Made by a program: the position numbers and the translations under genes. 64,000 nt of DNA, taken from positions 2,254 through 66,253 of the forward strand of contig JAGMDC010000003.1 of NCBI GenBank assembly GCA_023128895.1. Reading direction: 5' to 3'. The notes below the pieces were generated by a model. The model was not told where the DNA came from. It worked only from the letters and a program-made list of their open reading frames with translations, and searched no databases. This DNA is from Candidatus Parcubacteria bacterium (GTDB taxonomy: Bacteria > Patescibacteriota > Minisyncoccia > Minisyncoccales > JAGMDC01). Below are positions 14,080 to 61,965 of the stretch, one piece after another. Every line of letters begins with the position of its first letter. Position 1 is the first letter of the stretch.

Positions 14080-15495
14080 ATGTTAAATAAAAATAAGACT
14101 ATTATTAGCTATATCCCCTATTTTTTAGAATACTGCAAAATTGAAAAAAATCTTTTACCGAAAACTATTAAAAGTTATGATATTTTTTTGCGGCAATTTG
14201 CTACTTGGCTAAAAATTTCTAATTTATTCGATATACGGCCTGAAGAATTTTCTATAGAATATGCTGAAAAATATCGGGATTATCTATCCAAAGAAATTAA
14301 TGGTAGAAATCAACAAATTATTAGCAAAAAAACTCAAAATTATTATTTAATATCACTTCGCGCATTATTAACATTTTTCGTTGAAAAAAATATTAAGTCC
14401 CTCTCCCCTATTCAAGTAAGACTATTAAAAGAAGATAAAAAAATACCAAAAAATAAATTTTTAAATTCAGAAAAAATAGAATTAATACTTAAAATTCCTG
14501 ATACTTTAACTGTTATTGGCTTAAGAGACAGGGCTATTTTAGAAATTTTATTTTTTAATAGCTTAAAAGTTGGTCAAATTGTTAATTTAAATAAAAATAA
14601 TATTAATATAAAAGAAAAACATCAAATTTCAAAAAGATCTATAAAATGGATAAATAAATATCTCAAAACGAGACAAGAAGACAACGAAAAAGCCCTTTTT
14701 ATAAGTTATAAAGGGCCAAAGAAAAACGCTGGAGGGAGATTAAGCACTCGCTCTATTGAAAATATTGTTAAAAAATATATGACAAAATCAAAATTGGCTA
14801 CTTCCCTATCCCCTGAAAATTTGCGAAATATTTTTATAATCAACCTCTTGAACCAAAATGACAAAATTAAAATATATGATGAAATTTTTAATCATCAAAA
14901 ATTGAAAATCAGAAATGGTTATAAACCATCAGAAAGTAGAAAAAATAAAAGAATATCTAAAACATTACCTTACGCTTCTTGGAACACTATTGAATCTAAC
15001 ATAAATAAAGAAATAAAATGGTTGAAAGAAAATATTTCTGTTTTGTCCGCTGAATATGGACAAAATCGAAATTTCGTCTATTGCCACGATTGCCTTTTAA
15101 GGAAAATAGCGATTTTAATTGTAAGTGGTGAAATTGAAACTACTAAATTTGAAATACCACAAAGCAAAAAATTGTGGAATATTTCAAATGTCCAAAATAT
15201 CAAAATAATAAATAAGCATGGGCAAGAATGGCATCGCAAAATGATGAGTATAGTTTCAAAATATTTTGAAGATAAAAACTATAAAATAAAATTAGAACCT
15301 AATTTAAATTATGGAAGAGCGGATTTGGGTGTTTATTCAAAACAAAATCCAAAAGAAATTTTTTATATAGAGATAGGCACGGTATCTCTATTTAAACTTT
15401 GGTATAATTTTTCAACAATGAAAAATACTACCTTCTTAGTAATTCCGTTTGAAGAATATTTTATAGAGTTTAGCGCAAAATTAAATGAAAAATAA
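14080..15495 (+). CDS. degenerate Xer-like tyrosine-recombinase paralog with an extra C-terminal domain
   Basis: Has an N-terminal SAM-like core-binding domain. The box I region reads FNSLKVGQ (Lys where TGxR Arg is expected) and the box II region reads ENLRN (no HxxRH). There is no terminal LGH...Y. About 190 extra C-terminal residues contain GRADLGV...IFYIEIG. Confidence 0.6.
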   Translation: MLNKNKTIISYIPYFLEYCKIEKNLLPKTIKSYDIFLRQFATWLKISNLFDIRPEEFSIEYAEKYRDYLSKEINGRNQQIISKKTQNYYLISLRALLTFFVEKNIKSLSPIQVRLLKEDKKIPKNKFLNSEKIELILKIPDTLTVIGLRDRAILEILFFNSLKVGQIVNLNKNNINIKEKHQISKRSIKWINKYLKTRQEDNEKALFISYKGPKKNAGGRLSTRSIENIVKKYMTKSKLATSLSPENLRNIFIINLLNQNDKIKIYDEIFNHQKLKIRNGYKPSESRKNKRISKTLPYASWNTIESNINKEIKWLKENISVLSAEYGQNRNFVYCHDCLLRKIAILIVSGEIETTKFEIPQSKKLWNISNVQNIKIINKHGQEWHRKMMSIVSKYFEDKNYKIKLEPNLNYGRADLGVYSKQNPKEIFYIEIGTVSLFKLWYNFSTMKNTTFLVIPFEEYFIEFSAKLNEK

Positions 15496-16429
15496 AAATT
15501 TACCACATTTAGACGATTTTCTATTGAACTTGCAAACCAATAATTATTCAGAAGAGACGCTTTATAACTACGAACGGGATTTAGAAGTTCTAGAAAAATT
15601 TTTAGAAAAAGTAAAAATTGATTTTGCTGATATTGATAAAAAAACTATCCTAAATTATAAAGCGTATTTGGCTTCGCAAGACAGAGAAACGCCAAAAAGC
15701 GAAAAAGGCAAGAAAAAATTGGCCAGTTATTCTATGAATAGAATGCTGTCTTCTTTTCGTTCATATTTAAAATTTTTGATAGATATGGATTATAAATGCC
15801 CTATTCCGCCCGAGGTTATAAAATTAGTGAAAACAGAGAAAAAACATCCGCGAGTTTCTGAATTTGACGAAATAGTAAAATTAATTGAATCCCCTACTCT
15901 TTTCGAACACAACGAAATTGTGGCCTTGAGAAATAGAGCAATATTTGAAACATTATTTTCCACAGGGATGAGGATATCCGAATTAATAAACTTAAAAATA
16001 ATTCAAATAGATAAAACAGGCCGTATTTTTATCAGAGGAAAAGGAAAAAAAGAAAGATTTGTATATTTAACTCCAAGGGCTGAAAAACATATTAAGGATT
16101 ATTTGAAGAATAAAGAGAAAACAAATTCTTCTTATTTATTCACCCCGCTTAGAGGCAGAAACGTTAAAATCAAAGATAAAAAAATTTCCCCTAATTATAT
16201 ACAGGAGAAAATGAAAAGATATAGAGAAATCTTAGGATTGAATATTCCTATTTCTCCACATTCGCTTCGCCACGCTTTTGCCACTTATTTAGCGGAAAAC
16301 GGGGCTAATCCAGCTGCTATCCAAATTCTTTTAGGCCACGAATCATTAGATACCACTACTCGTTATGTTCATGCTTCTGACAGATACGCTGAAAAAATAC
16401 ATTGTAAATATCACCCATTAAAAAAATGA
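15485..16429 (+). CDS. tyrosine recombinase XerC/XerD family, catalytically intact
   Basis: ALRNRAIFETLFSTGMRISEL (Arg I), HSLRHAFATYL (His-x-x-Arg-His) and LGHESLDTTTRYVH (His, Tyr). 11-bp overlap with the upstream paralog. Confidence 0.85.
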   Translation: MKNKNLPHLDDFLLNLQTNNYSEETLYNYERDLEVLEKFLEKVKIDFADIDKKTILNYKAYLASQDRETPKSEKGKKKLASYSMNRMLSSFRSYLKFLIDMDYKCPIPPEVIKLVKTEKKHPRVSEFDEIVKLIESPTLFEHNEIVALRNRAIFETLFSTGMRISELINLKIIQIDKTGRIFIRGKGKKERFVYLTPRAEKHIKDYLKNKEKTNSSYLFTPLRGRNVKIKDKKISPNYIQEKMKRYREILGLNIPISPHSLRHAFATYLAENGANPAAIQILLGHESLDTTTRYVHASDRYAEKIHCKYHPLKK

Positions 16430-18504: not shown

Positions 18505-18780
18505 ATGTCTAAAACAAAAGCCACAGGCGTTACAAAATTAGGCCGGGATTCCCAGCCAAAATACTTGGGCGTAAAATTATATGAAGGCCAACAAGCAAAA
18601 GTGGGCAGTGTTATTATACGCCAAAGAGGAACAAAATTCCTTGCCGGGAAAAATGTTAAAAAAGGAGCTGATGATACGCTGTTCGCGCTAAAACAAGGAA
18701 CAGTTAAATTTTCAACAAAGCGCAAAATCAAATTTGACAAATCACAACGGCTTGTTAAGATTGTAAATATAGTAGATTAA
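18505..18780 (+). CDS. rpmA: 50S ribosomal protein L27
   Basis: MSKTKATGVTKLGRDSQPKYLGVK...GTKF is typical of bacterial bL27. Confidence 0.9.
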   Translation: MSKTKATGVTKLGRDSQPKYLGVKLYEGQQAKVGSVIIRQRGTKFLAGKNVKKGADDTLFALKQGTVKFSTKRKIKFDKSQRLVKIVNIVD

Positions 18781-20582: not shown

Positions 20583-21029
20583 TTAATCTTCGGAGTTTAT
20601 TATTATTTTAACTTCTGCTTCAAGATTATGTTCAAATTTAATGTTTATTGAAAATTCTCCTAATTCCTTGATTGGCTCATTCAAATCAATTTGGCTTGCG
20701 TCAACATTAATGCCTAATTCTTTTATTTTATCAGAAATTTTTTGCGTTGTGATGGATTCGAAAAGTTGTCCCTTATCACCTGTTTTAACTGGAATAATCA
20801 CTTCCAACCCGTCTATCGCGGAGGCCCTTGTTTCTGTTTTTTTCAAATCCTCTTCCGCTTTCCCCGCTATTATTTGTTTTTGCCCTTCAAGCCATTTCAT
20901 ATTTTTCTTATCAGCGATTTTTATCAAATTTTTCGGTATTAAAAAATTTCTGGCATAGCCGTCTTTAACTTCTTTCACATCGTATTTTTTTCCCAATTTA
21001 TCTACATCTTCTAATAATATAATCTTCAT
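20583..21029 (-). CDS. rplI: 50S ribosomal protein L9
   Basis: MKIILLEDVDKLGKKYDVKEVKDGYARNFLIPK. Confidence 0.9.
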   Translation of the reverse strand: MKIILLEDVDKLGKKYDVKEVKDGYARNFLIPKNLIKIADKKNMKWLEGQKQIIAGKAEEDLKKTETRASAIDGLEVIIPVKTGDKGQLFESITTQKISDKIKELGINVDASQIDLNEPIKELGEFSINIKFEHNLEAEVKIIINSED

Positions 21030-31626: not shown

Positions 31627-32919
31627 TCAGAAATCTGAAACTATATTGTAAATGCTCCCAGCGCCCATTATTACAACAATGTCATTTATATCGATTTTTT
31701 CCTTCAAAAATTCGGGAATTTTTTGGAAATCCTGTATAAAATGAACTTTGTTCCCTCTTTTTCCCACTGCTTTTGCTAATTTTTCTCCATTTACTTTTTG
31801 AGCGATTCCCTCATCTCCCCTGCCCGCGACATCATAAATTTCAGTCAAAACAATTTCGTCTGCCTCATCAAACGCCTTTACAAAATCATCAAACAAGTAA
31901 AATGTCCTTTGATGCTGATGCGGCTGGAATACAACCCAAATTTTGTTTTCAGGAAATTTTTCTCTAACGCCGGATATACAGGCCTTAACTTCTGTGGGAT
32001 GATGCGCGTAATCGCTTATCAGGATAAAAGGTTTCGGACTATTAATTTTAGTAATATCGCAGCGGCGCCAGCACCCGGTATATTCTGACAGCGCAAGGAA
32101 ACTTATTTCATCTGGAATTTTTAATGTTCTTGCGACTGCAAGCGCTGCCAGCGCGTTATAAACATTATATTCCCCCTTCACCTGTAAAATTTCCTTCAAT
32201 CTCCTTGCTTCTTCTTGTTCAATTGAAAACTTTTTGATTTTGTGTTTTGTATTTAATATCCGAAGGATATTATTGTCGTCCCCATTAACAATTAAAACTC
32301 CATCTTCCGGCAATTTATTAACAAACTTCTCAAACGCTTTAATAATATTTTCCAAATTTTTATAATAATCAAGATGGTCTGCTTCTATATTGTTTGCAAC
32401 AATAATATCAGGAGAATAATTCAAAAATGATTCTTCGTGTTCGCACGCTTCTATAAGCAAGTATTTTGACTTGCCAGCGCGAAAATTACTGTTTCCAAAT
32501 TCTTTAAGTTTTGTGCCAACAATCACTGTCGGATCTAATCCTGCTTTGATTAAAAGCAAAGCCAGCATTGATGTGGTAGAACTTTTGCCATGCGTGCCGG
32601 ATACAGCAATTGTAAAATGCTCTTTTGTTAAATTTCCAAGCGCTTGCGGGTATGACAAGCATTTAATTCCTAATTTTTTTGCCTGCGCAAACTCTGGATT
32701 ATCTTCCTGGACAGCGGGGCTGTAAATTACTAAATCAATATTTTCTACAATGTTTTTCGCTTCCTGCCCAATGAAAATTTTTGCTCCTTGCTTTTCAAGC
32801 ATTTCAGTAATCTCCGAACCACTCAAATCAGAACCAAAAACCTGGTCTCCTTTTTTAAGATAATACTGGGCAAGCGCACTCACGCCTATCCCGCCAATAC
32901 CAATAAAATAAATGGTCAT
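31627..32919 (-). CDS. murC: UDP-N-acetylmuramate--L-alanine ligase
   Basis: IGIGGIGVSALA and GTHGKSSTT. Confidence 0.9.
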   Translation of the reverse strand: MTIYFIGIGGIGVSALAQYYLKKGDQVFGSDLSGSEITEMLEKQGAKIFIGQEAKNIVENIDLVIYSPAVQEDNPEFAQAKKLGIKCLSYPQALGNLTKEHFTIAVSGTHGKSSTTSMLALLLIKAGLDPTVIVGTKLKEFGNSNFRAGKSKYLLIEACEHEESFLNYSPDIIVANNIEADHLDYYKNLENIIKAFEKFVNKLPEDGVLIVNGDDNNILRILNTKHKIKKFSIEQEEARRLKEILQVKGEYNVYNALAALAVARTLKIPDEISFLALSEYTGCWRRCDITKINSPKPFILISDYAHHPTEVKACISGVREKFPENKIWVVFQPHQHQRTFYLFDDFVKAFDEADEIVLTEIYDVAGRGDEGIAQKVNGEKLAKAVGKRGNKVHFIQDFQKIPEFLKEKIDINDIVVIMGAGSIYNIVSDF

Positions 32920-33464
32920 AATGGAAATGATTGTAAAATTGTATATTCCGCGCCAGAGCGTTTGAGACGGCTTTCCATTATGTCAATCGTCTTGACTTCA
33001 AACTCTAAAGAAATGTCTTTTTCTATTGCCGGCCTTTCTTCCGGTTCAATGCGGCGCCATTGCCATTCTTTAATTCTTCCTAAAGTAATATGTGGAACAA
33101 AATCGCGAACATTCTTTTTACCTAACAACTCCCGCTCTAATTCTTTATTTATTTCTGATAATTCTTTGTTCAGCGCGCCCAAAGCCCAAATCATTCGCGG
33201 AGGCATTATATCAGGAGGCCCGTAACTAATTTTATCCAAGTTTACTGAAAACGCAATATGTTTTTCAGCAATATCTTTCACGATTTCGCAAATTCTTGAA
33301 ATCTGTTCTTCCTCAATATAACCCAAAAAACACAAAGTAATATGGAGATTATCTTGTTTCGCCAATTTCACAGGCAAATCGCGAGGAATTTCCTTTTGTT
33401 CGTCTAATAACGCTTGTCTCACATCCTCTGGCAAATTTACAGCAATAAATATCCTATGTTTCAT
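32916..33464 (-). CDS. thpR: RNA 2',3'-cyclic phosphodiesterase / 2'-5' RNA ligase family
   Basis: Two HxTx motifs (LHITLCFLG and PHITLGRI). 4-bp overlap with murC. Confidence 0.8.
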   Translation of the reverse strand: MKHRIFIAVNLPEDVRQALLDEQKEIPRDLPVKLAKQDNLHITLCFLGYIEEEQISRICEIVKDIAEKHIAFSVNLDKISYGPPDIMPPRMIWALGALNKELSEINKELERELLGKKNVRDFVPHITLGRIKEWQWRRIEPEERPAIEKDISLEFEVKTIDIMESRLKRSGAEYTILQSFPL

Positions 33465-33548
33465 TACCTTAGTTTAACACGACATTGACTTTATTTCAAT
33501 AATTTTATAACTTAAAATAAGTTCTTAATAACAGAAAAAAAGATAAAG

Positions 33549-34460
33549 ATGATGGAACCTAAAAAATCAGATTTTGGAAAACAAGAGATTAAAAAATGTC
33601 CAGAGTGCGGATGCAGATATCTAATAACCAGCGATAAGGAAATTTACTGTTCTGGCTGTGGATTAGTGATTGCGGAAAATATAATTGACCTTGGCCCTGA
33701 ATGGCGGGCTTATGATGCTGAACAACACCAGTCAAAAACAAGAACCGGCCCTTCAATGAACTGGCGATATTATGATAAAGGATTGTCAACAGCCACGCCG
33801 CTTGCAAATAAAATACCAAACATCCGACAACCGCGCATTTCAGTCCAAGCAGTGTCAAAAGAAAAAACTTTAGCATTTACTCTTTCGGAAATGCACAGAA
33901 TATGCTCAGCGCTTCAATTACCAGATATAACAAAAGAAGAAGCAGCGAAATTATGCCATAATACGCGGAAAAAAAATCTATTTAGAGGTAGAAGAACAGA
34001 AGCAATAGCAGCGGCAATTGTTTATATCGTCTGCAAAGAACAAAAAATATCCAGAACGCTTTCAGAAATAGAAAAAGTATCAAGGGTGAAACAAAAAGAA
34101 ATCAGAAGAACTTATATATTCTTGCAAAAAGAGCTCAAATTAAAAACCAGACAAATTTCCAGCGCTGAATTAATACCGCGCTACTGCTCTAAACTCGGCT
34201 TGAACAGTCAAATAGAAAAATCGGCAAGAGAAATAATTAACAAAGCAGAAGAACAAAACTTAACCGATGGTAAACGGCAAGCAGGAGTCGCTGCCGCAGC
34301 AATTTATATCGCATGCTTTTTGGAGAGTACACATCGCACGCAAAAAGATATATCTCGGGTTGCAGGAATAACAACGCAGACACTCAGCACAAGATACAAC
34401 GAAATATCAAAAAAATTACAAATTAGAGATATGTATTTAATTCTGGACAAAAAAATATGA
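33549..34460 (+). CDS. TFB/TFIIB-family transcription initiation factor homolog
   Basis: N-terminal zinc ribbon CPECGCRYLITSDKEIYCSGCG. B-reader/linker signature IDLGPEWRAYD ... YDKGLST. Two cyclin-like repeats follow. Length is 303 aa. Confidence 0.8.
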   Translation: MMEPKKSDFGKQEIKKCPECGCRYLITSDKEIYCSGCGLVIAENIIDLGPEWRAYDAEQHQSKTRTGPSMNWRYYDKGLSTATPLANKIPNIRQPRISVQAVSKEKTLAFTLSEMHRICSALQLPDITKEEAAKLCHNTRKKNLFRGRRTEAIAAAIVYIVCKEQKISRTLSEIEKVSRVKQKEIRRTYIFLQKELKLKTRQISSAELIPRYCSKLGLNSQIEKSAREIINKAEEQNLTDGKRQAGVAAAAIYIACFLESTHRTQKDISRVAGITTQTLSTRYNEISKKLQIRDMYLILDKKI

Positions 34461-34495
34461 AAAATATCCGCTCGCGCGGATTCATTTTTTTTACC

Positions 34496-35620
34496 CTAAC
34501 AAATTATTCCACCTCCCAAGAGGTTTTCGCGAATATAAAAAACAACGGACTGGCCAAAAGTTATCGCGCGCTGGGGCTTATTAAACACTATTTTGTAATT
34601 TTTACCTTTGCTTTGATATTTCAAAATAGCAGAGGCGGGTTCGTGATGATAGCGAATTTTCGCTTTTACCCTCAAAGGCATTTTTGGTTTGTTTCCAGAA
34701 ATCCAATTAACATTTTCAGCTACAAGTTCTTTTTTATCTAATTCTTTTTCCTTTTTCGTAACGAATAAAATATTTTTCTTTATATCTTTTCCTGAAACAT
34801 AATAGGGACCGCCTGGCAAGCCAATGGATTTTCTTTGCCCAATTGTGTAAAAACACAAACCCTGATGCTCGCCGATAATTTCATTTTTTTGGTTCAAAAT
34901 TTTTCCCGGTTTTGATTTGATATATTTTTTTAAAAAAGCATTAACATCTTTGCCGATAAAACAAATATCCTGGGACTCTTTTCTTGTAAATCGCGAAATG
35001 CCAATTTTTTCAGCGATTTTCCCCGCTTCTTTTTTAGTATAATTTCCTAAAGGAAACAAAATTTTCTCTAATTCTTTTTGTTCTAACATCCATAAAAAAT
35101 AGGACTGGTCCTTGCTTCTGTCCTTTGCTTTCAACAATTGATATTCGTTACTCTGTGCTTTTTGTCGCAGGCGGGCCTGCCCGCAATGCTTCGCGTAGCG
35201 TTGCAGGCGAGCCTGCCCGCAATGCTTCGCGTAGCGTTGCAGGCGTGCGTAATGTCCGGTTGCGACGAAGTCAAAATCAATTTTTAATTTTTTAAGTTTT
35301 TTCACCAATAAATCAATCTTAATTTCTTTATTGCAGATAACGCAGGGATTAGGGGTTGTCCCCTGCTTAATTTCTTTGATAAACCTGTCAATAATTTTCT
35401 TTTTGAATTCTTTTTTAACATCTAAGACCAAAAATGGAACATTTAATTTTTTACAAATTTTTTCTGCGCGGATTTTTGCTTTTTGGAATTCCTTTGAATC
35501 AAACAAATCCAAAAAAACACCAACAACATTATATCCCTTTTGCTTTAACAAAAAACACGCAACACCAGAATCTTTTCCTCCTGACATTGCGCAAATAATT
35601 ATTTGATTTTCGCTTCTCAT
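34496..35620 (-). CDS. mnmA: tRNA-specific 2-thiouridylase
   Basis: PP-loop CAMSGGKDS, ATGHYAR and KDQSYFL. Contains an in-frame tandem repeat ARLQRYAKHCGQ x2. Confidence 0.9.
   Translation of the reverse strand: MRSENQIIICAMSGGKDSGVACFLLKQKGYNVVGVFLDLFDSKEFQKAKIRAEKICKKLNVPFLVLDVKKEFKKKIIDRFIKEIKQGTTPNPCVICNKEIKIDLLVKKLKKLKIDFDFVATGHYARLQRYAKHCGQARLQRYAKHCGQARLRQKAQSNEYQLLKAKDRSKDQSYFLWMLEQKELEKILFPLGNYTKKEAGKIAEKIGISRFTRKESQDICFIGKDVNAFLKKYIKSKPGKILNQKNEIIGEHQGLCFYTIGQRKSIGLPGGPYYVSGKDIKKNILFVTKKEKELDKKELVAENVNWISGNKPKMPLRVKAKIRYHHEPASAILKYQSKGKNYKIVFNKPQRAITFGQSVVFYIRENLLGGGIIC
35175..35246. repeat. two tandem family-C 36-bp GC-rich palindromes inside the mnmA coding sequence, in frame
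   Basis: gcctgcccgcaatgcttcgcgtagcgttgcaggcg(a/t) occurs twice. Its reverse complement is closely similar to 22280..22315. Confidence 0.85.
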
Positions 35621-38582: not shown

Positions 38583-38626
38583 TTTCATCACAATATCTCT
38601 GGCATAGTTTAATTGCTTAGTATAAA

Positions 38627-39376
38627 TTATTGGCTGTTAATTTCATAAATCTTTCTTTCTCCACTTGGCAGTTCGTATTCCAGTTCTGTGTCAGAGAGCC
38701 ATTTGGGTTTGAAACGCCAAGAAGGGTCGGATGAAGCAATTTTAATCTTTTCTTTGGTGAAAAGATTGTAAATCCATAGATTTTTCATCTCTCCTCTTTG
38801 TCTCGCTTCTTCTTCCATCTGTTCAACCACTCCTCCAAAACCAGTAAAAGATGTCATATCAACATAAGCGAGCCATCCTTTGAAGTTCCACGCTCTTTCA
38901 GCTCCGGAAGGAAGATCAGAAGGCATAGACAAAATATCAGTTTTCCATGTTCCCATCTCTACACGGTAATATGCGGTTTCATAAGCTCCAACATATATAT
39001 CTCCCCATAAATATTTACCATCCGGAGTCCAAATACCTAACCCAAAACTGCCTGGTTCAATATCTGAATGTTTTTCCAATATCTCATCAAGGGTCAAAAC
39101 AAAAACATCCTCTTTTGTTTCTAAAACCTTGATGACAAGGGCATAATCAGGACTGCCGAGATAACCGCGTTCAAGAACAACATAATTTTCTGTAGGGTCA
39201 ACGCGAAAATCTCCAAGTATATTTTCAAAAGACCATTTAGCATAAGAAGCGATTAATGCTTTCCCTTTTCCGTTATAATTATATCTCCACAACTCTCTTC
39301 TATAATTTTCAAGTGGTATTTTTTTTTGATAATCATAATTAAAAGTTCTTATTGCATATACACCGCATTTATGCAA
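38627..39376 (-). CDS. hypothetical protein (TTG start only; possibly the continuation of the upstream ORF)
   Basis: A 249-aa ORF with no ATG near its 5' end. It begins 1 nt after the TGA of 39378..39689. Confidence 0.4.
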   Translation of the reverse strand: MHKCGVYAIRTFNYDYQKKIPLENYRRELWRYNYNGKGKALIASYAKWSFENILGDFRVDPTENYVVLERGYLGSPDYALVIKVLETKEDVFVLTLDEILEKHSDIEPGSFGLGIWTPDGKYLWGDIYVGAYETAYYRVEMGTWKTDILSMPSDLPSGAERAWNFKGWLAYVDMTSFTGFGGVVEQMEEEARQRGEMKNLWIYNLFTKEKIKIASSDPSWRFKPKWLSDTELEYELPSGERKIYEINSQ

Positions 39377-39377
39377 C

Positions 39378-39689
39378 TCAATTGGGTGATAATGATCTGG
39401 GATCTGGATTTGATATATTTATTTGAAAACTAAATATTTCTGTATTATCTTTTTTATTTTTGATAAAAATTTCGGCTATTCCTCCGCCCTCTTCTTTCTT
39501 TTTGATTTCATATCCTGCTACTTCATCATCTGCCAGACAAGCGCTATGAGCAACCAAATTTTCCTGCGCTCCTTTGTTTTCTTCTATTTCCCTTATTGCC
39601 CGCTGCTGATAATTCAATACAACTACAATTGCAAGAAAAAATGTTAAAACAACTATAATAAGATATAACCAATTTCTCATAAAACTCAA
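39378..39689 (-). CDS. hypothetical N-terminally membrane-anchored protein
   Basis: TM helix WLYLIIVVLTFFLAIVVVL. Length is 103 aa. Confidence 0.4.
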   Translation of the reverse strand: MSFMRNWLYLIIVVLTFFLAIVVVLNYQQRAIREIEENKGAQENLVAHSACLADDEVAGYEIKKKEEGGGIAEIFIKNKKDNTEIFSFQINISNPDPRSLSPN

Positions 39690-39892
39690 AGATGCTTAAT
39701 AATGTATTGAGTGTCGTTAATTAAAAGATTAGAACACTGGTCTGTGATGTACTGTCTTTCGGCAAAGAACTCAACTTCTCTGATAAACCATTCAAGAACA
39801 TTAGTTATTATTCCGTTCATAGTCTTCTCATACGCTTCTTTCATCCTTTCTAATACTTGTTCTATCGCTGGAAGTTTAGCTTCATCTATCAA
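39686..39892 (-). CDS. hypothetical 68-aa protein
   Basis: ORF with a 4-bp overlap onto the next gene. Confidence 0.35.
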   Translation of the reverse strand: MIDEAKLPAIEQVLERMKEAYEKTMNGIITNVLEWFIREVEFFAERQYITDQCSNLLINDTQYIIKHL

Positions 39893-40027
39893 TTCATCAT
39901 AATACCTTAATCGTTCTTATTTTTCTTGCTCTAATCTTTGAGCTGATTTCAGCTTGGCAATGAGCATATCTTTGACAAATCCCAGATATTATAAATATCC
40001 GATATCTACATCAATCCAGTTTAATTT

Positions 40028-40360
40028 TCATGTAGACAAGATCAAAGCCGTTATAAATATAAAAAATACAAATAATGATACTAACAAACCAATGATAGAT
40101 AGAACTATACCTACTATAGCATGACTCTTTTTGGTCGACCTTAACCCAGTTATTCCAAAAATTAAACCGAGAATAGCACTTATTATTGCTATAGAAAGTG
40201 TTATTGCATATATTGCTACATTTATTGCCAAACTTGTTAATACTTCTGTTAATACTCCTACGCTCGGTGCTATTAAGCTAATAATACCCAATATCAAGGA
40301 AAGAACAGCCTTGCCCTTTGGGTCGGATTTTAATTTAGAAACATCTTGATTATCGCTCAT
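40028..40360 (-). CDS. small multi-TM membrane protein
   Basis: A 110-aa protein with three or four hydrophobic helices. Confidence 0.5.
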   Translation of the reverse strand: MSDNQDVSKLKSDPKGKAVLSLILGIISLIAPSVGVLTEVLTSLAINVAIYAITLSIAIISAILGLIFGITGLRSTKKSHAIVGIVLSIIGLLVSLFVFFIFITALILST

Positions 40361-40491
40361 ATTTTTTAATGTCTTAATTTTTTATTATCTTTTAACGACC
40401 TTTTAAGGTTTAGTGAATTCAGAACAACCCGACAGCAAACCTAACACAGGAATTACAGCGTTCGGGCTACTGTAAACCGCAAAATGCGTAA

Positions 40492-43400
40492 TCACCAAGA
40501 TAGATGAAAAAATGAGTTAAGAGCCCCTAAAAACCGCGTACGTAAGCCAGTAGTATGAGATTTAAAAAACGAGGGAGCGGCAAACTTAACCGCTAATTGG
40601 GCGTATGACCAGGATTGGCTTAGCCGCATTACTGCTTTGTCCGGCCGTGCTTTAGATATTTCTTTCTCTGCTCTTGATAACTCTCTTTCGGCTTTCTCTA
40701 TGAAGCGATCAACTGTGTTTTGAAACATAGGATTTCCAATTGGTGTATTCTTGGCGTCATTGATAGCTGTTTCAGCTATTATCCTGTCTGCTTTGATTAG
40801 ATTATCTACAACTTGATTAAATACTGGCAGAACAGTGTTAATGGCTTCAATCTCGGTCTCTTCTTTCTCTGTGTCTAATCCGAATTTTTGCTTTATCTCT
40901 ATAATTCTTTCCAGGATTGATGTTTTTGTATTAAATATCCGTGCTTTATGATAAAGACGGCTTACAGCAAAGGATTGTTCAAAGAGAACTTTCCTACCCT
41001 GGTTTGAATCAAGACGAAAATCGTCAATCCACAAGGCATTATCCAAACTTTTATCAATATGCCTGATAATTGAATCAATTTCTCTATTTATTGCTTTATT
41101 ATTAGTTTTACTTTCTTCCAAGAGAGATATGCTTTGTTCTTTGAGAAGTTTAGGGGTTTGCCAGGGAATTGCCGGCAGAACAGCGATATCTGTTGTTCCT
41201 GTGATTGGCTGTTCTAATTCCTGCCCTGGCTCTATTTGCTCAGTGCTAATATTTGATTTGTATTGTTGGCTGGCTTCATCGTAATAAATTGCTTGAACCT
41301 CATAAGTTTCAATCCCATCAGTTAATTCTTGAAGTTCAGGATAAGTTTCTATCATTTCTTGGATATCTTTGCTGGAAACAACGAAATGAACCTTTGTTTC
41401 CTCGGGCACAAAAATCCATTCATCGTCGTAAACAAGATCCCCCGAGGCAATGGCTTCTGGAATTTGATTTTCATATTCTCCTGTTTCGTAATTCATGCCA
41501 GTATGTCTACCTAGCTCATCGTAAGCATGAAGGTCAACATCAGCAGAAATGGACTTGTAAGAAACATTTAAGGGGGTGGTCAAATTATTTGAATGAGCAG
41601 AAGCAAAAGAAACGAAAAAAGTTAAAATAAAGATAATTGCTAAAAAAATAATAATTCGCAAAATCGTTTTTTTTGCTTTTTGCTTTTTGATAATCCAAAA
41701 TCGTAAAAAGAACAGAGATATAATGAGCAGAGCTAAAATTTGCTGCAAACCGCTTGTTATCATTGAAAGATATCTTACCGATGCATACTCATAAATTTGT
41801 TCAATTTTATATCCAAAGACATGTAAATAAAATCGTTCGCCGGGTCCCATTGGATGAAGATGAAAATAAAGAATTTCTTTCTGCTCTTCCTTATCAAATT
41901 CAGAAGATATCTCATTAACTTTGAAAGGATCAGAAGCGAACTCCCAAATTTTTTCTAATAAGGACAATTTTGGTCGCAAAACAGTTCCAACATAATTTGA
42001 AAGGGTACATTCAGAAATTTGAGCATTAATTTTAAAACTATCGGGTTCAGCAATACGATTATTTATTTCAACGAAAACATTGTTTATCGGATCTTTAAAT
42101 GGCGAGTTCAAGGGATCTGGAATGGGCGGAACTAATGGACCTAAAGAAATTATACCCACAGATTTAGCAATATTAACAAAATTAATCGTAGTTGTCTCAT
42201 TATTTACTGTAATTTCTTTGGGCGAAATTTTATAAATTACCAAAGGATTATCTGGTAAATCTGTATCCCATTTACTATATGCAGAATTATTAGTTCTGGC
42301 TTCTAAAAGATAATATGAGTCATTAGCAAGATTATACCTTGCCACTTCATCGCCAAACTTCATTGTTTCTAATGATTCGATTGTATGACTGCCATATTCT
42401 ACAACATTTTCCTGAAGCCAGCCGAGCTTAATTTTGCTAAATGAAGAGAAATAAGATGTGATATTTTGTGTTACGCTCCAAATATTTGTGGCGCCACCCA
42501 TTATATCAAAATAATTGGGAACAGATCCGCCATAACCGCCATCGTAACAAGGGTTTGCTGTAGAATATAAATCACATAAAGGATAACCTGTTAATATATT
42601 ACCCAAAGCGTGTCCTAATTCATGAGACCAGACATATTTTGTGCCATTTTCCGCAACTGCTATCCAATTATTAATGAACTCGGTCGGACTATTAATTGGC
42701 GCGGGGGAAAAAGAAGGCGTCCACCATTGAGATGAAAGAGGATATTTTTGCAAAGAAAGTAATTTTTGTTCTGAATCTCCCCAATAAATAACTATAACAC
42801 TTTGATAATCATTATAATCTATATCTTCATCAGCTTTATTGATTGCGTCCCAAATAAATTGCTCTGTCCTGTCCTCATCTTTTACTTTTATTTCTCTACC
42901 CTGTCCGTCAAGACCAAAGCTTATTTCCTGAACTTGAGAAAAGTTTTTTCCGTAATGTTTCTGAGTTTGCTCTAACTTATAATTCAATTCATTGTTGTCA
43001 TAAACATCAAAATTTAAATTAAAAAGTCCTCCATTGCAAGTTTTTGTAATTGGATCCCATTTTCCAAACGAATTTTCACAATAATAATCTTCAACTTGTT
43101 CAGTAATGCTTTCAAAGTATTCTTTGTTATGCGAAAAATCAAAAAATTTATCGGGATCACTCGGTTCAGCTAAAATCACCGCAATATTGTAGGTTGGAGA
43201 TTGAGGCGCTTCCCACCCGCTCTCTTGTATAAATGGGTATCTGTCTCGGCAAGGATGAAGACAATAATATCCATAATGATAGCCGCCCCAGAAGTTATAA
43301 GAAAGATATGGGGTATCGCCTATTCCATCACTGCCAGGTTGGTCTTGTTCGGGTCCGCTCTTTTCATCTACGCCTGTATAATCGCTCCAATAATTGCCGC

Positions 43401-44577
43401 CTGATGGATAATCATTGTCTAAAAAATCAGTATCGCAAACAAACATCTCGGGACTATTGTGGTTATCAATAAAATTATTGTGAAATATCTCATTATCCTT
43501 GCTGCACATTACCATTCCAGCTGGCCAGTACCAATGACAAAGCATGCGCAAACCATATTCTGTATTCTCTCTCAAAGTATTTTCAGTGACAGTATTGTAA
43601 TGAGAAAGGAATATATAAATACCATGTTGATTTAAGCTAATATCATTATCTGTAATTGTATTATAACTGGAATAATACAGACAGATTCCAAAATCGTTAT
43701 TTGAATTGACAATATTGTCAACGAGAATATTATTGTCAGAATGCGTTAAACGAATTCCGTGAGATTTATTATTGGAAACATTATTGTTGTTAAGGGTGCT
43801 ATTTGAACCATAATAAAAAAAAGCGCCTGAATGAAAATTATTTACAGTACAATTTTTAACAGCAACATTAGTTTTGCGATTTACATAAACGCCGTATCCA
43901 GTATCAGAGCCTGTCATGTTATAGCCAGCGCAGTCCAAAGTAATATTACTCTCTGTTATCTCTATACTTTCAATTAAATCCTGGGTTAAAGTACAGGTTG
44001 AGGTTCCTTCATTCCAGATGCCATAATCAGAGCATTCTTCCGGCAGAAATACTACATTATCGCTTTCAGACAGGGTTTGAATATCTTTGGATTGAATCCC
44101 TGCATCCGCTTCGGGCTGAATCCAAATATGATGGGATTGGGTTAAGTCTTGAGTCCAATTATGTTCTCCATTTCTATTGGAAACAAAAACAGCTTTGTTT
44201 TTGTAGCTGTCTTGGAATTTGTAATAGGTTGTATTTGGCTCTAATCCGCTAATAGTTAAATTAGTAGAAGCAAAATCGGTTGAGGAGCTAATATCCATAC
44301 TAATCATTCTTGGGATTGATTCTATATCTATTGTTATTTCTTCAGTGCTTTTCAGAGAAATATTGAGATATTCGCTGTCAATTATTTCAAAATAACTGCC
44401 TGTTCCTTCAACTTTTCCAGATATTTGCGGTTCCAGCAATGCGTCCTCGGCAAAGGTTACTGCCGGTATTATCATTAAGAATGCCAAACTTGCTAAGACA
44501 ATTTTCATTGGTTTATATTTTTCCGTAATCCGTTTTGCTGTTGTTTTAATTTCTTTTTGACATTTTCTTTTATTCAT
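40492..44577 (-). CDS. giant surface protein: parallel beta-helix repeats plus HExxH metallopeptidase motif, two internal TM helices and a helical C-terminal domain
   Basis: Signal anchor. Beta-helix repeats of NosD/PbH1 style (NNNVSNNKSHGIRLTHSDNNILVDNIV...). SHELGHALG. TM pair ILALLIISLFFLRFWII / IIIFLAIIFILTFFVSF. Length is 1361 aa. Confidence 0.65.
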   Translation of the reverse strand: MNKRKCQKEIKTTAKRITEKYKPMKIVLASLAFLMIIPAVTFAEDALLEPQISGKVEGTGSYFEIIDSEYLNISLKSTEEITIDIESIPRMISMDISSSTDFASTNLTISGLEPNTTYYKFQDSYKNKAVFVSNRNGEHNWTQDLTQSHHIWIQPEADAGIQSKDIQTLSESDNVVFLPEECSDYGIWNEGTSTCTLTQDLIESIEITESNITLDCAGYNMTGSDTGYGVYVNRKTNVAVKNCTVNNFHSGAFFYYGSNSTLNNNNVSNNKSHGIRLTHSDNNILVDNIVNSNNDFGICLYYSSYNTITDNDISLNQHGIYIFLSHYNTVTENTLRENTEYGLRMLCHWYWPAGMVMCSKDNEIFHNNFIDNHNSPEMFVCDTDFLDNDYPSGGNYWSDYTGVDEKSGPEQDQPGSDGIGDTPYLSYNFWGGYHYGYYCLHPCRDRYPFIQESGWEAPQSPTYNIAVILAEPSDPDKFFDFSHNKEYFESITEQVEDYYCENSFGKWDPITKTCNGGLFNLNFDVYDNNELNYKLEQTQKHYGKNFSQVQEISFGLDGQGREIKVKDEDRTEQFIWDAINKADEDIDYNDYQSVIVIYWGDSEQKLLSLQKYPLSSQWWTPSFSPAPINSPTEFINNWIAVAENGTKYVWSHELGHALGNILTGYPLCDLYSTANPCYDGGYGGSVPNYFDIMGGATNIWSVTQNITSYFSSFSKIKLGWLQENVVEYGSHTIESLETMKFGDEVARYNLANDSYYLLEARTNNSAYSKWDTDLPDNPLVIYKISPKEITVNNETTTINFVNIAKSVGIISLGPLVPPIPDPLNSPFKDPINNVFVEINNRIAEPDSFKINAQISECTLSNYVGTVLRPKLSLLEKIWEFASDPFKVNEISSEFDKEEQKEILYFHLHPMGPGERFYLHVFGYKIEQIYEYASVRYLSMITSGLQQILALLIISLFFLRFWIIKKQKAKKTILRIIIFLAIIFILTFFVSFASAHSNNLTTPLNVSYKSISADVDLHAYDELGRHTGMNYETGEYENQIPEAIASGDLVYDDEWIFVPEETKVHFVVSSKDIQEMIETYPELQELTDGIETYEVQAIYYDEASQQYKSNISTEQIEPGQELEQPITGTTDIAVLPAIPWQTPKLLKEQSISLLEESKTNNKAINREIDSIIRHIDKSLDNALWIDDFRLDSNQGRKVLFEQSFAVSRLYHKARIFNTKTSILERIIEIKQKFGLDTEKEETEIEAINTVLPVFNQVVDNLIKADRIIAETAINDAKNTPIGNPMFQNTVDRFIEKAERELSRAEKEISKARPDKAVMRLSQSWSYAQLAVKFAAPSFFKSHTTGLRTRFLGALNSFFHLSW

Positions 44578-44590
44578 TATTACAAAATTG

Positions 44591-54153: not shown

Positions 54154-56733
54154 TTATTTAATATTTAAAGTTTCAAACATCTTCTCTTCGAATTTATTTT
54201 CATCCTCGCTCTGATAAAACGGCACACCTACAATTTTATACTTCTGCGATTTCGAAAATTCTAAAACTCTGTCTTTAAATTTATCTTTAATTTCTTCTAA
54301 AAATTTACTCTTCCATTTCTCTCCTTCAGCTAAATATTTTCCTTTCGGTTCTAGAAATAATTGATAAGTAATACTTCTACCAATTTTATCAACTAAAAAC
54401 AAAAGGTAATCCGGTTCAAACGCTTGGCCGTCACTAAAATTATAAATTTTCAGCTGTCTTTCATTACGAACTAAGTAAATCTTTTTAAAATTCTTTCTTA
54501 ATTCGTTTATCTGCCGGTCAATCAATTTAACAAATGTTTTTTCTTCACTTGTGCCATAATTAGCATTAAACACATACCATTCTTTATCTTCTAAAAATTC
54601 AATCTGGCCATCTTCTCTTTCGCTACGCATTTTGACTTTTATTTTCTTATCATTAAATTTATCTTTAATCAGATATGGCATAAATTCTTGACTACCGCTA
54701 TATTCAGTCAAATTTTCTTTAATTTGTTTTTCTATTTCGCCAAGAAGTTTTAAAACTGCCCGAAATTTATCTTCATTAGTTATAGTCGGAGTATATTTTT
54801 CTACCTGAAAATTGATTTTAAAACCAGCTAAATATTTTCCCTTTTCAACAAACTCGCTCGCAGAATCTATTTCCGGAACATATTTTTTTAAAGAACCAAA
54901 ATCGAAAAAATCATTCTTTGCCAAAGCGTTTCTAATAATGTGATAATCTATTTCCTTGAGGCTAATTTCCTTTCCTGTCCTTTTCACGCCTTCGCGTATT
55001 AAATCTTCGTCTTCCTTAAACACTGTTGTCTGTTTGCCTTCTCCGGATAATACCTTAAAGTCAATGCTTTTATTTCTTACCCCCAAATCATCAATCGATT
55101 TTACCTTATCAAAACTTATTGGTCTTTTTTCATTGGCATAAACTAATCCAAATTTATAAAAATTTGTTTTCTTAAATTCCTCTTTCAATTTCAACTCAAC
55201 CTCTACCTCATTTTCGTCAATCATTCCCTTTTCAATTAGAGCAATTTTTATCTCTGAAATATATCTTGATTCGTTATGGCTATGATAATGTAATTCTTCC
55301 AAAACACGGAGTTCATTATCTAAATTTTTATCATATTTCCTCTTAAACTTATCGTCAACTTCGCTCAACTTAAACGGAAAATAACGAGCGCCCCTGCCAA
55401 TTAACTGAGCTTCGGAAATAGTGGTTTTGCCAGGTCGGTTATTCCTGCCGTCTCTGGTTTCGTATAGTCGGACAATATCAAATAAATTCAAAACGTCCCA
55501 ACCCTCGTTTAGTTTCTGAACCGCAAAAATAGCCCGAATTTGATTATTTTTATCTTCAAGAGAGTTCAAAAGCAATTGATGTTTTTCTTTTTCCTGTTCT
55601 TCATTTACGCTTAAAGTTTTACTCTTGGCAAAACTATTTTTTAGTTTTTTAACTAAAATAGCATTGGTAATTTTATTGCTTTTAAAAAACTCAAACGCTT
55701 TTTGTAAAATTTCAATATTAGTTCTTTTTTTAATATTTTCAATATCCTTAATAGATAAATTATCAATTATTTTGTGAAACAATTTTTTATTACTTTCTGA
55801 TTGAGCAATTGTTTGTTGCGCCTTGAATAAAATTACCGGCTTTAAATTAATTCCGTGTTTGCCGGCTACCTCTTGTCGATATTGGCTTAAAATTATTGCC
55901 TGAATTATTCTCTCTCCCCTATCCGTATCTGTATGCAGTAATTCAACATCTTTTGAATAACCGTCGTTTCTAAATTCTTTTAATTCGTATTTGTAAATAA
56001 TTTTATTCCTATATTTATCAACTATATTTATGTCCGTCAAATCCATTGTCGCGGTAAACTCTAGTAATATATTTTCATTGTCTTGTTTAAATATTTTCTC
56101 AACCGTATTTTCCCAATTCGGCTTTTCAATCATTTCTTTTTGTGTATTTTTTGTCTGCACTTGTCCGTGATGCGCCTCGTCTGAAATTAAAACAATTTTT
56201 TTATCTTTAAAATCTTCCAAAGTCAAAGAGTTTTCTTTTTCATTATGCAAATCGCTATGTAATTTCTGAATAGTGGTAAAACAAATATTAATATCTCTAT
56301 CGCTTATACCGTCAAAATTTTCTACCTGTTTAATTTGCGTTTGTTTATTTTCAAAAAATATTTTTTGATTAAATAAATATTTGCTGGATAAATTATTCAG
56401 AAAGTTATCTTTGGTTTTTTCAATAATATTAGTGGAATTAACGAAAAATAAAAAATTTCTATATCCTCGCTCGTATAAATACAAAATCAATCCAGCCATA
56501 ATTAAAGTTTTGCCCGAGCCGGTAGCCATATTAAAAAGGAAGTGTAAAGGATATTCTTTATTCTCAAAATCGCGATTATAACAATGAAAAAAGCGCGCAA
56601 ACGCCTCTTTTTGATATTCGCGCAACTCAAAATTAGGATTTAGATTTTCCGACAAAAAACTCGGAATTTCTTTCGGCAATAATCCCATCTTTGACACACT
56701 ATTCAATTGCTCATATAAAAATTCTTGAGGCAT
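54154..56733 (-). CDS. res: Type III restriction endonuclease Res subunit
   Basis: SF2 helicase motifs MATGSGKT and SDEAHH. C-terminal PD-(D/E)xK endonuclease motif EPDYLLF ... LEPKG. Confidence 0.9.
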   Translation of the reverse strand: MPQEFLYEQLNSVSKMGLLPKEIPSFLSENLNPNFELREYQKEAFARFFHCYNRDFENKEYPLHFLFNMATGSGKTLIMAGLILYLYERGYRNFLFFVNSTNIIEKTKDNFLNNLSSKYLFNQKIFFENKQTQIKQVENFDGISDRDINICFTTIQKLHSDLHNEKENSLTLEDFKDKKIVLISDEAHHGQVQTKNTQKEMIEKPNWENTVEKIFKQDNENILLEFTATMDLTDINIVDKYRNKIIYKYELKEFRNDGYSKDVELLHTDTDRGERIIQAIILSQYRQEVAGKHGINLKPVILFKAQQTIAQSESNKKLFHKIIDNLSIKDIENIKKRTNIEILQKAFEFFKSNKITNAILVKKLKNSFAKSKTLSVNEEQEKEKHQLLLNSLEDKNNQIRAIFAVQKLNEGWDVLNLFDIVRLYETRDGRNNRPGKTTISEAQLIGRGARYFPFKLSEVDDKFKRKYDKNLDNELRVLEELHYHSHNESRYISEIKIALIEKGMIDENEVEVELKLKEEFKKTNFYKFGLVYANEKRPISFDKVKSIDDLGVRNKSIDFKVLSGEGKQTTVFKEDEDLIREGVKRTGKEISLKEIDYHIIRNALAKNDFFDFGSLKKYVPEIDSASEFVEKGKYLAGFKINFQVEKYTPTITNEDKFRAVLKLLGEIEKQIKENLTEYSGSQEFMPYLIKDKFNDKKIKVKMRSEREDGQIEFLEDKEWYVFNANYGTSEEKTFVKLIDRQINELRKNFKKIYLVRNERQLKIYNFSDGQAFEPDYLLFLVDKIGRSITYQLFLEPKGKYLAEGEKWKSKFLEEIKDKFKDRVLEFSKSQKYKIVGVPFYQSEDENKFEEKMFETLNIK

Positions 56734-56742
56734 ATTTTATTT

Positions 56743-57708: not shown

Positions 57709-57751
57709 AAGTTTATAATGTCTAATTGTTCACAAAGAAATTGTTGAGATA

Positions 57752-58441: not shown

Positions 58442-58586
58442 AAAATTCACTATTTAATTTCTTATCTCCTTCGCTCACTTTAAAATCTCTGTCCTTAATC
58501 TCACTCAAATTTACATAAAGCTGATTTTTGTTAAGGATATCAAAAAGGGAACGTTTTTGTTTGGCAACGGGAAGTTTTTTAAATTC
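58431..58586 (-). pseudogene. remnant 2 of a Type III mod 3' end (51 codons plus stop)
   Basis: Translates as EFKKLPVAKQKRSLFDILNKNQLYVNLSEIKDRDFKVSEGDKKLNSEFYEK-stop. 41 of 51 residues are identical to the Mod C-terminus. A TAG lies immediately upstream. Confidence 0.85.
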
Positions 58587-58637
58587 CTATCAGCCGTGTT
58601 TTTAAAATTCTTCGGTGATTAGTTTTTGGATTTGATA

Positions 58638-60007: not shown

Positions 60008-60011
60008 ATAT

Positions 60012-60110: not shown

Positions 60111-60155
60111 AAAATCGCTATTAAATTGCTCGTAAAAAAATTACTGGGGCACAAT

Positions 60156-61961: not shown

Positions 61962-61965
61962 AATT

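Follow-up and report, generated by a model that had tools for sequence, protein, structure and literature searches.

A divergent TFIIB-family transcription factor of probable ANME-1 ancestry at a conserved Parcubacteria locus

A 64,000-nt stretch of contig JAGMDC010000003.1 (GCA_023128895.1; hereafter the window, to whose whole length all coordinates refer), deposited as Candidatus Parcubacteria bacterium and stemming from a tiny bacterium of the candidate phyla radiation known from cold-seep metagenomes, encodes a transcription factor B (TFB) of the TFB/TFIIB superfamily among bacterial housekeeping genes. Reliance on TFB/TFIIB and the TATA-binding protein (TBP) versus reliance on sigma factors is the textbook divide between archaeal/eukaryotic and bacterial transcription initiation. 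A TFB in a bacterium is unexpected, since no machinery with which it could work is known in bacteria, and one that is selectively kept in a bacterial lineage breaks this divide and demands a partner. An ancestor of one bacterial sub-lineage almost certainly captured the gene from archaea of the anaerobic methanotrophic group ANME-1 (Methanophagales), the transfer being followed by domestication. As to function, the reading placed first, at a probability of roughly 0.4, is that of a host-factor mimic aimed at the transcription machinery of an archaeal partner.

Architecture of the TFB protein

The gene and the parts of its product are as follows:
33549..34460, + strand: TFB/TFIIB-family gene, an uninterrupted open reading frame (ORF) of 303 aa (ORF list, Pfam, PDB, AlphaFold2/Foldseek)
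33594..33668, + strand: zinc ribbon, residues 16-40, with Cys17, Cys20, Cys34 and Cys37 (PF08271, model)
33669..33773, + strand: B-reader, residues 41-75, with the GPEWRAYD helix and loop residues R65 and G67 (alignment)
33774..33860, + strand: B-linker, residues 76-104, DKGLST followed by a short 23-aa linker (alignment)
33861..34148, + strand: first cyclin-like repeat, residues 105-200, including G147/R148 (PF00382; alignment with 1D3U_B and human TFIIB; predicted local distance difference test, pLDDT, >90)
34149..34424, + strand: second cyclin-like repeat, residues 201-292 (PF00382, residues 200-288)

The window protein is a bona fide full-length member of the TFB/TFIIB superfamily. The Pfam zinc-ribbon profile of TFIIB (PF08271) matches residues 16-54 (E 4.8e-12, 45.7 bits against a cut-off of 29) and the TFIIB repeat profile (PF00382) matches two stretches (E 3.4e-45, 152 bits against a cut-off of 23.6), which bears out the homology proposed in the initial annotation of this DNA; the motifs quoted there are all present (CPECG at residues 17-21, CSGCG at 34-38, GPEWRAYD at 49-56 and YDKGLST at 75-81). 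The NCBIfam model NF001658 (TFIIB) aligns residues 8-293 with positions 7-309 of its 312, scoring 269.6 bits, under the 384-bit cut-off. Searches of the PDB recovered the Pyrococcus TFB core from a complex of TBP, TFB and DNA carrying the TFB recognition element (BRE) and TATA box (1D3U_B; E 1.5e-41), as well as human TFIIB (E 4.9e-35, residues 31-286). In an AlphaFold model built on a 64-sequence alignment, pLDDT exceeds 90 over residues 102-290, which make up the cyclin core, and the zinc ribbon is three-stranded, with beta strands at 25-42. The model superposes on 1D3U_B at 2.2 Å over 189 columns (TM 0.83), and Foldseek ranks TFIIB chains of Pol II pre-initiation complexes at the top. The reader and linker are modelled with low confidence (pLDDT <50 in the B-reader), as expected for segments that become ordered only inside RNA polymerase (RNAP).

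A second Met at 33552 gives an alternative 302-aa form (P0001), as found in public data, and the identical protein is present in NCBI, ENA and Logan. Its name in nr is MCK4354906.1, 'transcription initiation factor IIB [Candidatus Parcubacteria bacterium]'; the NCBI annotation pipeline already labels such Parcubacteria proteins as TFIIB. A search of the accessible literature found no report of TFIIB/TFB in Parcubacteria, Patescibacteria or bacteria of the Candidate Phyla Radiation (CPR), nor of archaeal transcription factors in CPR or other bacteria, and the Nealsonbacteria and Minisyncoccus papers make no mention of TFIIB; the one kind of TFIIB exchange on record there is between archaea (PMC8407114).

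Ribbon, reader and linker are among the best-conserved stretches of the bacterial TFBs. The four ribbon cysteines are invariant across all bacterial and archaeal homologues compared, and the B-reader aligns residue for residue with E51/W52/R53 and R66/G68 of human TFIIB and with the archaeal consensus. In the B-linker, where K77, G78, L79 and T81 are invariant, K77-G78-L79-S80-T81 matches the human L80-T82 region and, again, the archaeal consensus. E51, R53, R65, G67 and K77-G78-L79 are invariant in all bacterial copies, and W52 in all but P0002 (W52S). The recognition helix of the helix-turn-helix (HTH) in the second repeat reads TTQTLSTRYNE in the window protein versus TEVTIRNRYKE in archaea. 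By alignment, Q277 and S280 are the equivalents of human V283 and R286, which we take to be BRE contacts (Tsai and Sigler 2000; Littlefield 1999). R280 is 94% conserved among 108 archaeal TFBs, and the canonical V/R pair of the BRE helix is kept in the bacterial relatives P0005, P0006 and P0061.

Relatives, ancestry and divergence

Relatives were gathered from a protein search, look-ups of exactly matching contexts and a scan across species-representative genomes, and they bear the taxon names given by the depositors. At least 12 lineages of Parcubacteria, Nealsonbacteria or Minisyncoccales carry TFB at the thpR locus, with thpR upstream of and divergent from it in every bacterial locus examined, on the backbone mraY-PBP-aspS-...-murC-thpR (PBP, penicillin-binding protein). 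TFB identity among the lineages with this arrangement is 43-86%. The window clade (100% bootstrap) comprises the window copy (WIN), P0003 at locus L094 (74% identical to it), P0004 at L096 (56%) and P0002 (86%, assigned by sequence alone). The conservative clade is 43-49% identical to the window protein and includes copies on long contigs named by NCBI as Parcubacteria, Minisyncoccales or Ca. Nealsonbacteria (P0005/L005, P0059/L008, P0006/L012), on further long contigs (P0007/L009, P0114/L093, L013) and on a 7.9-kb ENA contig (P0061/L095). Downstream of TFB, L005, L009, L008, L093 and L095 carry genes for a radical SAM protein, a LigB/Memo-like protein and AMMECR1 (an AmmeMemoRadiSam-type trio), then for an HHH_8 protein and EF-P, whereas the window clade has mnmA-tpiA-acs instead. 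The complete Ca. Nealsonbacteria genome CP179890.1 (676 kb; murC 59% identical) shares the backbone, has an HMG-CoA-synthase-like gene beside thpR in TFB's place, and lacks a TFB within 15 kb, which marks TFB as an insertion present in only part of the group. Judged from these sequence comparisons, the TFB locus is inherited vertically at one spot across a Parcubacteria sub-lineage and is not a one-off.

A longer relative, P0168 (448 aa), and the murC homologue P0232 both have a longest contig of 38,609 bp; because of this match in contig size, P0168 is probably another bacterial TFB, with a C-terminal extension of ~130 aa. P0168 and a few other TFBs have a precomputed Sigma70_r4 (PF04545) match on the second-repeat HTH. 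In two Logan assemblies (L098, L099), the contigs both break ~85 bp upstream of thpR, at the TFB 5' end.

The conservative bacterial TFBs are 70-80% identical to those of ANME-1/Methanophagales. The closest archaeal sequence is P0138 of ANME-1 GoMg1, encoded on a contig with an archaeal-type neighbour, no thpR and a GC content of 0.43-0.49. A short B-linker (20-30 aa versus 36-38 aa in most other archaeal TFBs) is common to the bacterial copies and ANME-1 TFBs, and the linker motif QYKLKKWQQRTHIANTT, set in linkers of 24-30 aa, is common to the conservative copies and one ANME-1 paralogue group. In neighbour-joining trees, the only kind built, the conservative copies cluster with ANME-1 'group II' TFBs, with weak internal support and bacterial monophyly unrecovered, the bacterial branches being longer than those of ANME-1 by a factor of 2-5. 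Among the carriers, several derive from cold-seep sets of metagenome-assembled genomes (CSMAG names), and ANME-1 dominate cold seeps. Horizontal acquisition, which the initial annotation had listed as one option, is supported by these comparisons with archaeal TFBs, which point to ANME-1/Methanophagales as the donor lineage.

The third-position GC content (GC3) of TFB in the conservative clade (L005, L009, L008, L093) is 0.33-0.36, versus 0.19-0.29 in neighbouring genes. These four TFBs differ mutually at a synonymous divergence (dS) of 0.7-1.4, dS being near saturation for the deeper pairs, and the L005 copy differs from that of ANME-1 GoMg1 at 0.77, no larger than between bacterial copies. 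The persistently high GC3 and the dS of 0.77 hint that ANME-1 has repeatedly supplied the gene anew or acted as donor in gene conversion, or that codon usage is under selection. Co-transfer of neighbouring genes was rejected, since the radical SAM, LigB/Memo, AMMECR1 and HHH_8 genes have no counterparts beside TFB in any ANME-1 locus, so that only TFB was transferred. A viral vector was likewise rejected, as IMG/VR viral contigs hold no relative of the window TFB.

The window clade is equidistant, at 44-47% identity, from both ANME-1 paralogue groups, other archaea and the conservative bacterial copies. Neighbour-joining places it with ANME-1 'group I' (82% bootstrap), a placement in which long-branch attraction is likely, and a separate transfer is not claimed. 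At diagnostic sites it combines 47 group-I states with 39 group-II and 54 other states, and an NKIPxL linker motif is common to the window clade, P0005 and P0007. Only synteny and this motif argue for common ancestry with the other bacterial copies, and the window-clade locus may have undergone a second replacement in situ.

Divergence was measured over 96 invariant columns, defined as those conserved in at least 90% of the 108 archaeal TFBs. Retention has a median of 0.99 and a minimum of 0.83 among archaeal TFBs, and ranges over 0.90-0.97 in the conservative bacterial clade and 0.73-0.76 in the window clade. The window protein keeps 72 of the 96 columns (0.75), below all 108 archaeal sequences. 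It retains all Cys ligands, E51/W52/R53, R65/G67, DKGLST and G147/R148; its changes include H75Y, Y136C, R137H, S149R, I150T, P202Q, P205S, P244Q and R280S. Losses elsewhere in the clade include W52S in P0002, P50R in P0003, and G49R/P50R with G147S/R148W in P0004. The 'full TFB layout' of the initial annotation consequently stands as architecture and falls short as sequence: about 25% of the residues conserved in at least 90% of archaeal TFBs are lost, the BRE-contact arginine among them, and the NCBIfam score is below the cut-off. By curated score, invariant retention and BRE-helix residues, the window copy is a divergent superfamily member and not a typical TFB.

Between the window and L094 (JGI 3300040951), TFB is 74% identical in amino acids, versus 91-100% for the flanks. 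At the DNA level, the flanks are 95-100% identical and TFB and mnmA ~85%, with the AspS protein at 100%, a mosaic over 33450-35620 that suggests recombination or an old polymorphism centred on TFB. For this pair the nonsynonymous divergence (dN) of TFB is 0.14, dS is 0.35 and dN/dS is 0.40, compared with dN/dS of 0.13-0.30 in neighbouring genes. Across clades, dN/dS is 0.32-0.40 in the window clade and 0.16-0.24 in the conservative clade; window-clade changes number 87 nonsynonymous versus 53 synonymous, where neutrality predicts ~3.6:1. Positive selection was considered and rejected, because dS is also raised (0.35) at a dN/dS of 0.40, a pattern resembling that of a less constrained allele, either older or recombined. 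On these codon-level estimates, TFB is under purifying selection everywhere, relaxed about two-fold in the window clade, and the window copy is assigned to a faster-evolving sub-clade that is ~45% identical to everything else.

Expression signals and bacterial surroundings

The following elements flank or overlap the ends of the TFB gene:
33485..33513, + strand: predicted sigma70-type promoter of TFB, TTGACT (33485-33490), 17 nt, TAACTT (33508-33513) (promoter scan)
33485-33499: palindrome TTGACTTTATTTCAA between thpR and TFB, holding the TFB -35 box
34440..34453, + strand: conserved DNA motif ATTCTGGACAAAAA, just 5' of the terminator
34466..34492, + strand: bidirectional intrinsic terminator, stem ATCCGCTCGCGCGGAT and T run, 6 nt past the TFB stop codon

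From these predicted signals, the TFB gene is a monocistronic unit expressed from a bacterial sigma70-type promoter and closed by an intrinsic terminator. The promoter element, with a TAnnnT -10 box at 17 nt, is kept in seven of the seven bacterial TFB loci compared, plus L098 and L099. Read on the minus strand, the palindrome supplies TTGAAA, which would serve thpR, and the promoter scan gives matches on both strands. It is common to the window, L094, L005, L009, L008, L093, L095, L098 and L099, is missing in the empty-site genome (L097), gives the two divergent genes overlapping -35 boxes and may double as an operator. At L008 and L095, the annotated ATG overlaps with the -10 box (TATGAT); the starts of P0059 (369 aa) and P0061 (350 aa) have therefore probably been called wrongly, giving these proteins their long N-terminal extensions. 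Equivalent terminators with a GC stem and T8 lie 3' of TFB in all bacterial loci compared. The motif just before the terminator occurs in every bacterial TFB locus, within the ORF in the window (encoding ..ILDKK), P0006, P0059 and P0061, and past the stop codon in L005, L009, L093 and L094, which places its conservation at the level of DNA or RNA.

The neighbouring genes are bacterial, and three of them are placed as follows:
32916..33464, - strand: thpR, RNA 2',3'-cyclic phosphodiesterase of the LigT family, divergent neighbour of TFB (Pfam LigT_PEase)
~18505-18780: ribosomal protein L27 (Pfam)
~20583-21029: ribosomal protein L9 (Pfam)

On one side of TFB lie thpR, murC, aspS, a PBP gene and mraY, and on the other mnmA, tpiA and acs. 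Across the called genes of the window, Pfam matches are to bacterial genes only: those for peptidoglycan and division comprise murD, ftsW, murG, mraY, murC and two penicillin-binding proteins (precomputed Pfam), and those for translation and core metabolism comprise gltX, aspS, L27, L9, CTP synthase, thpR, mnmA, tpiA, acs and glyceraldehyde-3-phosphate dehydrogenase (GAPDH). The GC content of TFB (0.37) and its GC3 (0.30) are the same as those of its neighbours. The window sequence recurs at 99.8-100% identity in six independent assemblies or samples (NCBI GCA_030628815.1, four from ENA, one from Logan), in one of the ENA assemblies on a 375-kb scaffold; this agreement, which stands in place of read-pair support, extends across the junctions at 33.4-34.6 kb with no chimera. 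The bacterial flanks murC and thpR, mnmA and tpiA, and the L27 and L9 genes cited in the initial annotation are confirmed by the Pfam tables, and its judgement that the gene is no simple binning error holds, given the peptidoglycan genes, L27/L9, the sigma70-type promoter and the intrinsic terminator.

Within the TFB gene, an A6 run (33862-33867) carries a -1 frameshift in one ENA assembly (40.5-kb contig), yielding fragments P0122 (107 aa) and P0123 (189 aa); this is either a sequencing error or a real null allele. Next to it, mnmA contains a 36-bp tandem repeat (35167-35245, 2.2 copies, 97% matches) that duplicates the peptide ARLQRYAKHCGQ and is found in all the identical assemblies. TFB genes also occur on short contigs labelled Desulfobacteria (L070) and Proteobacteria (L056). 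Beside the TFB gene of L070 lies an archaeal-type gene (Endo_dU); this contig is probably archaeal and mis-binned, and as an example of a binning artefact it contrasts with the window.

Elsewhere in the window, two tandem tyrosine-recombinase (phage integrase) genes at 14080-16429 (GC 0.25-0.28) are possibly a mobile-element remnant. A segment of ~6 kb (38583-44590) with several hypothetical genes is missing from the otherwise collinear strain L094; it encodes a 1361-aa NosD/beta-helix protein (40492-44577) and is a candidate variable surface or adhesion island. A low-GC defence-type cluster spans 54154-63978:
54154-56733: DEAD/ResIII helicase-nuclease
56743-57708: RhuM-like protein
59375-60052: SLFN/AlbA_2-domain protein
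60156-61961: AAA ATPase
61966-63978: type III restriction-modification methylase

Candidate roles and known systems

The initial annotation left the role of TFB between a repurposed DNA-binding regulator and a protein targeted at an archaeal host or partner, and both remain candidates. To our knowledge, the ribbon, B-reader and B-linker of TFIIB have no fold of their own and work, in all known systems, only in the cleft and dock of an archaeal/eukaryotic-type RNAP. The host-factor mimic is ranked first because these segments lack a fold of their own and serve RNAP only, because they are highly conserved, because bacterial TBP is lacking and because relatives of the carriers live on archaeal hosts. 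In the conservative clade the archaeal-invariant surfaces are preserved almost entirely, as would be predicted if the protein still engaged an archaeal pre-initiation complex. Methanothrix carries Nealsonbacteria as epibionts (10.1101/2022.04.20.488981), and Minisyncoccus, Microsyncoccus and Yanofskyibacterium live as epibionts or parasites on Methanospirillum or Methanothrix (PMC10936435, PMC12281837, PMC13293708). ANME-1 share the sheathed envelope of those methanogen hosts (PMC11576556). Under the mimic reading, TFB would reach an archaeal partner, plausibly ANME-1, and engage the host RNAP and the TBP-promoter complex, thereby redirecting or jamming host transcription. The window sub-clade probably no longer reads the canonical BRE, because it has replaced the BRE-reading residues; this replacement would fit a change in promoter targeting, or else an inhibitory role exerted mainly by binding RNAP.

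Several points weigh against host mimicry. We know of no route of protein injection from Patescibacteria into archaea. The TFB N-terminus (MMEPKKSDFGKQEIKK) is hydrophilic and has no signal peptide or recognizable export signal, though it may carry a non-classical one, and the Pfam tables of the window contain no secretion-system genes. A monocistronic gene among housekeeping genes is typical of a cell-internal function. The association of Parcubacteria with ANME-1 is circumstantial, consisting of co-occurrence and gene ancestry, and a parasite has no obvious gain from delivering a near-canonical copy of its host's own factor. The position of the window copy outside the range of the 108 archaeal TFBs could equally mean neofunctionalization in the bacterium or slow decay. 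Finally, Pfam tables and tblastn showed neither TBP nor any archaeal RNAP subunit in the 64-kb window or in the ~20-kb surroundings of eight other bacterial TFB loci, but this inspection covered only ~10% of the genome.

The main, if tentative, alternative is an endogenous repurposed factor, a regulatory or architectural protein that would bind the DNA of the bacterium itself through its cyclin/HTH core; its ribbon, reader and linker may contact bacterial RNAP, the dock, lid, rudder and clamp coiled-coil of which are homologous to the archaeal ones. It would account for the conserved sigma70-type promoter and terminator, the monocistronic organization, the fixed place among cell-wall and translation genes, the missing export signal and the long-term retention under purifying selection. 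Several bacterial lineages have independently replaced BRE-contact residues that archaea conserve at 94% or more, which suggests new DNA targets, and the departure of the window clade from the archaeal sequence range is what a functional shift would lead one to expect. However, a new function should free some surfaces, whereas the conservative clade keeps 90-97% of the archaeal invariants on all of them, including the disordered B-reader, for which no partners are known beyond the cleft of archaeal/eukaryotic RNAP and the template strand. No bacterial partner for the TFIIB ribbon or reader is known, and the sites equivalent to theirs are occupied by regions 3.2 and 4 of bacterial sigma, which counts against this alternative as well.

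That TFB is a passenger, an acquired leftover with little or no function in slow decay, at least in the window sub-clade, is unlikely. It would agree with the loss of 23-26 of the 96 archaeal invariants in that clade, different ones in each member, with a TFB dN/dS about twice that of neighbouring genes and with the frameshift allele in the A6 run of one assembly. Yet four window-clade lineages, with an identity of only 53-86%, all have an unbroken ORF, dN/dS (0.32-0.40) is clearly below 1, promoter and terminator are conserved, and the window copy keeps the key B-reader residues.

It is improbable that TFB belongs to an imported module, working with a TBP and perhaps other archaeal factors acquired elsewhere in the genome. 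The TBP- and DNA-facing parts of the cyclin core are near the archaeal consensus in the conservative clade, and inspection of each genome covered 64 kb plus flanks, which leaves room for such factors. Against it, no TBP occurs in the window or the ~20-kb bacterial loci. A tblastn search of 96 loci and the window with Pyrococcus TBP found TBP only in the archaeal locus L086, which served as a positive control, and none in bacterial DNA; Pfam scans of unannotated ORFs adjacent to TFB, including one of ~201 aa in L005 and L009, found neither TBP nor any significant family. No neighbouring gene was co-transferred from ANME-1, CPR genomes are small, and bacteria lack any known TBP (PMC3597702).

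A bolder possibility, and a long shot, is that TFB has become part of transcription in the bacterium itself, with the ribbon, reader and linker entering the bacterial RNAP cleft and competing with or replacing sigma at some promoters. This hybrid form of initiation is kept in view because the promoter is bacterial, no export signal is present, the RNAP-cleft segments are under selection and the RNAP elements that they contact are universally conserved. Stitching of an archaeal fragment into a bacterial contig is virtually untenable, a shared systematic mis-assembly being its sole formal possibility and support for it being nil, given that six assemblies from different samples and assemblers have the same junctions, that TFB matches its neighbours in GC and GC3 between a bacterial promoter and terminator, and that the same thpR junction occurs in lineages as divergent as 43% identity.

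Each partner would carry its own significance. If the partner is an archaeal host, TFB would be the first candidate for a bacterial 'nucleomodulin' aimed at archaea, a handle on how CPR parasites control their hosts and genetic evidence tying a Parcubacteria lineage to ANME-1, key anaerobic oxidizers of methane. If it is bacterial, an archaeal initiation factor can be grafted onto bacterial transcription; and if TFB enters the bacterial RNAP cleft, a hybrid archaeal-bacterial initiation system would exist in a living lineage.

Among known systems, the nearest family is the ANME-1 'group II' TFB (P0138 of GoMg1; P0008/P0128, nr PXF53327.1), whose architecture is the same, from ribbon and reader through the short linker to the two cyclin repeats. 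The copies of the conservative clade resemble it at 70-80% identity and share QYKLKKWQQRTHIANTT with it; the window copy shares the short linker length, the invariant cysteines, E51/W52/R53, R65 and DKGLST. The window copy differs in being ~47% identical, in keeping 75% of the invariants versus at least 83% in every archaeal TFB sampled, and in having Q/S for V/R in the BRE helix, and the bacterial TFBs as a whole differ in their bacterial host cell, promoter and terminator and in their longer branches. Specialized archaeal TFB paralogues offer a second comparison. TFB3 of Sulfolobus is without parts of the canonical protein and acts in trans, and haloarchaea have families of specialized TFB paralogues (PMC3261711). 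Like the window TFB, these have diverged from the general factor, their roles are specialized or auxiliary, and altered promoter-recognition residues are a known route; unlike it, they work in cells with TBP and archaeal RNAP, whereas the window TFB is in a bacterium.

Host-mimicking effectors include TAL effectors and other nucleomodulins, and the eukaryote-like proteins of Legionella. The window TFB is like them in logic only, and no membership is claimed: under the mimic reading it would be a host-type information-processing protein, obtained or imitated by a host-dependent bacterium, that has a purpose only within the machinery of the host. Those effectors have defined secretion systems and signals and eukaryotic hosts, whereas for the window TFB a delivery route and an archaeal host are only postulated. 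Viruses also encode initiation factors and RNAP-binding proteins, among them phage sigma and anti-sigma factors, and the likeness is again one of logic, a parasite's copy of a host initiation factor redirecting or blocking host transcription. The carrier of the window TFB is, by contrast, a cellular bacterium, and the protein has no relative in IMG/VR. For archaea-to-Patescibacteria transfer itself, form III RuBisCO provides a precedent, according to one report (10.64898/2026.05.13.725050). The two cases are alike in crossing domains between archaea and CPR bacteria, and differ in that RuBisCO is a stand-alone metabolic enzyme, whereas TFB belongs to a multi-protein, domain-specific machine.

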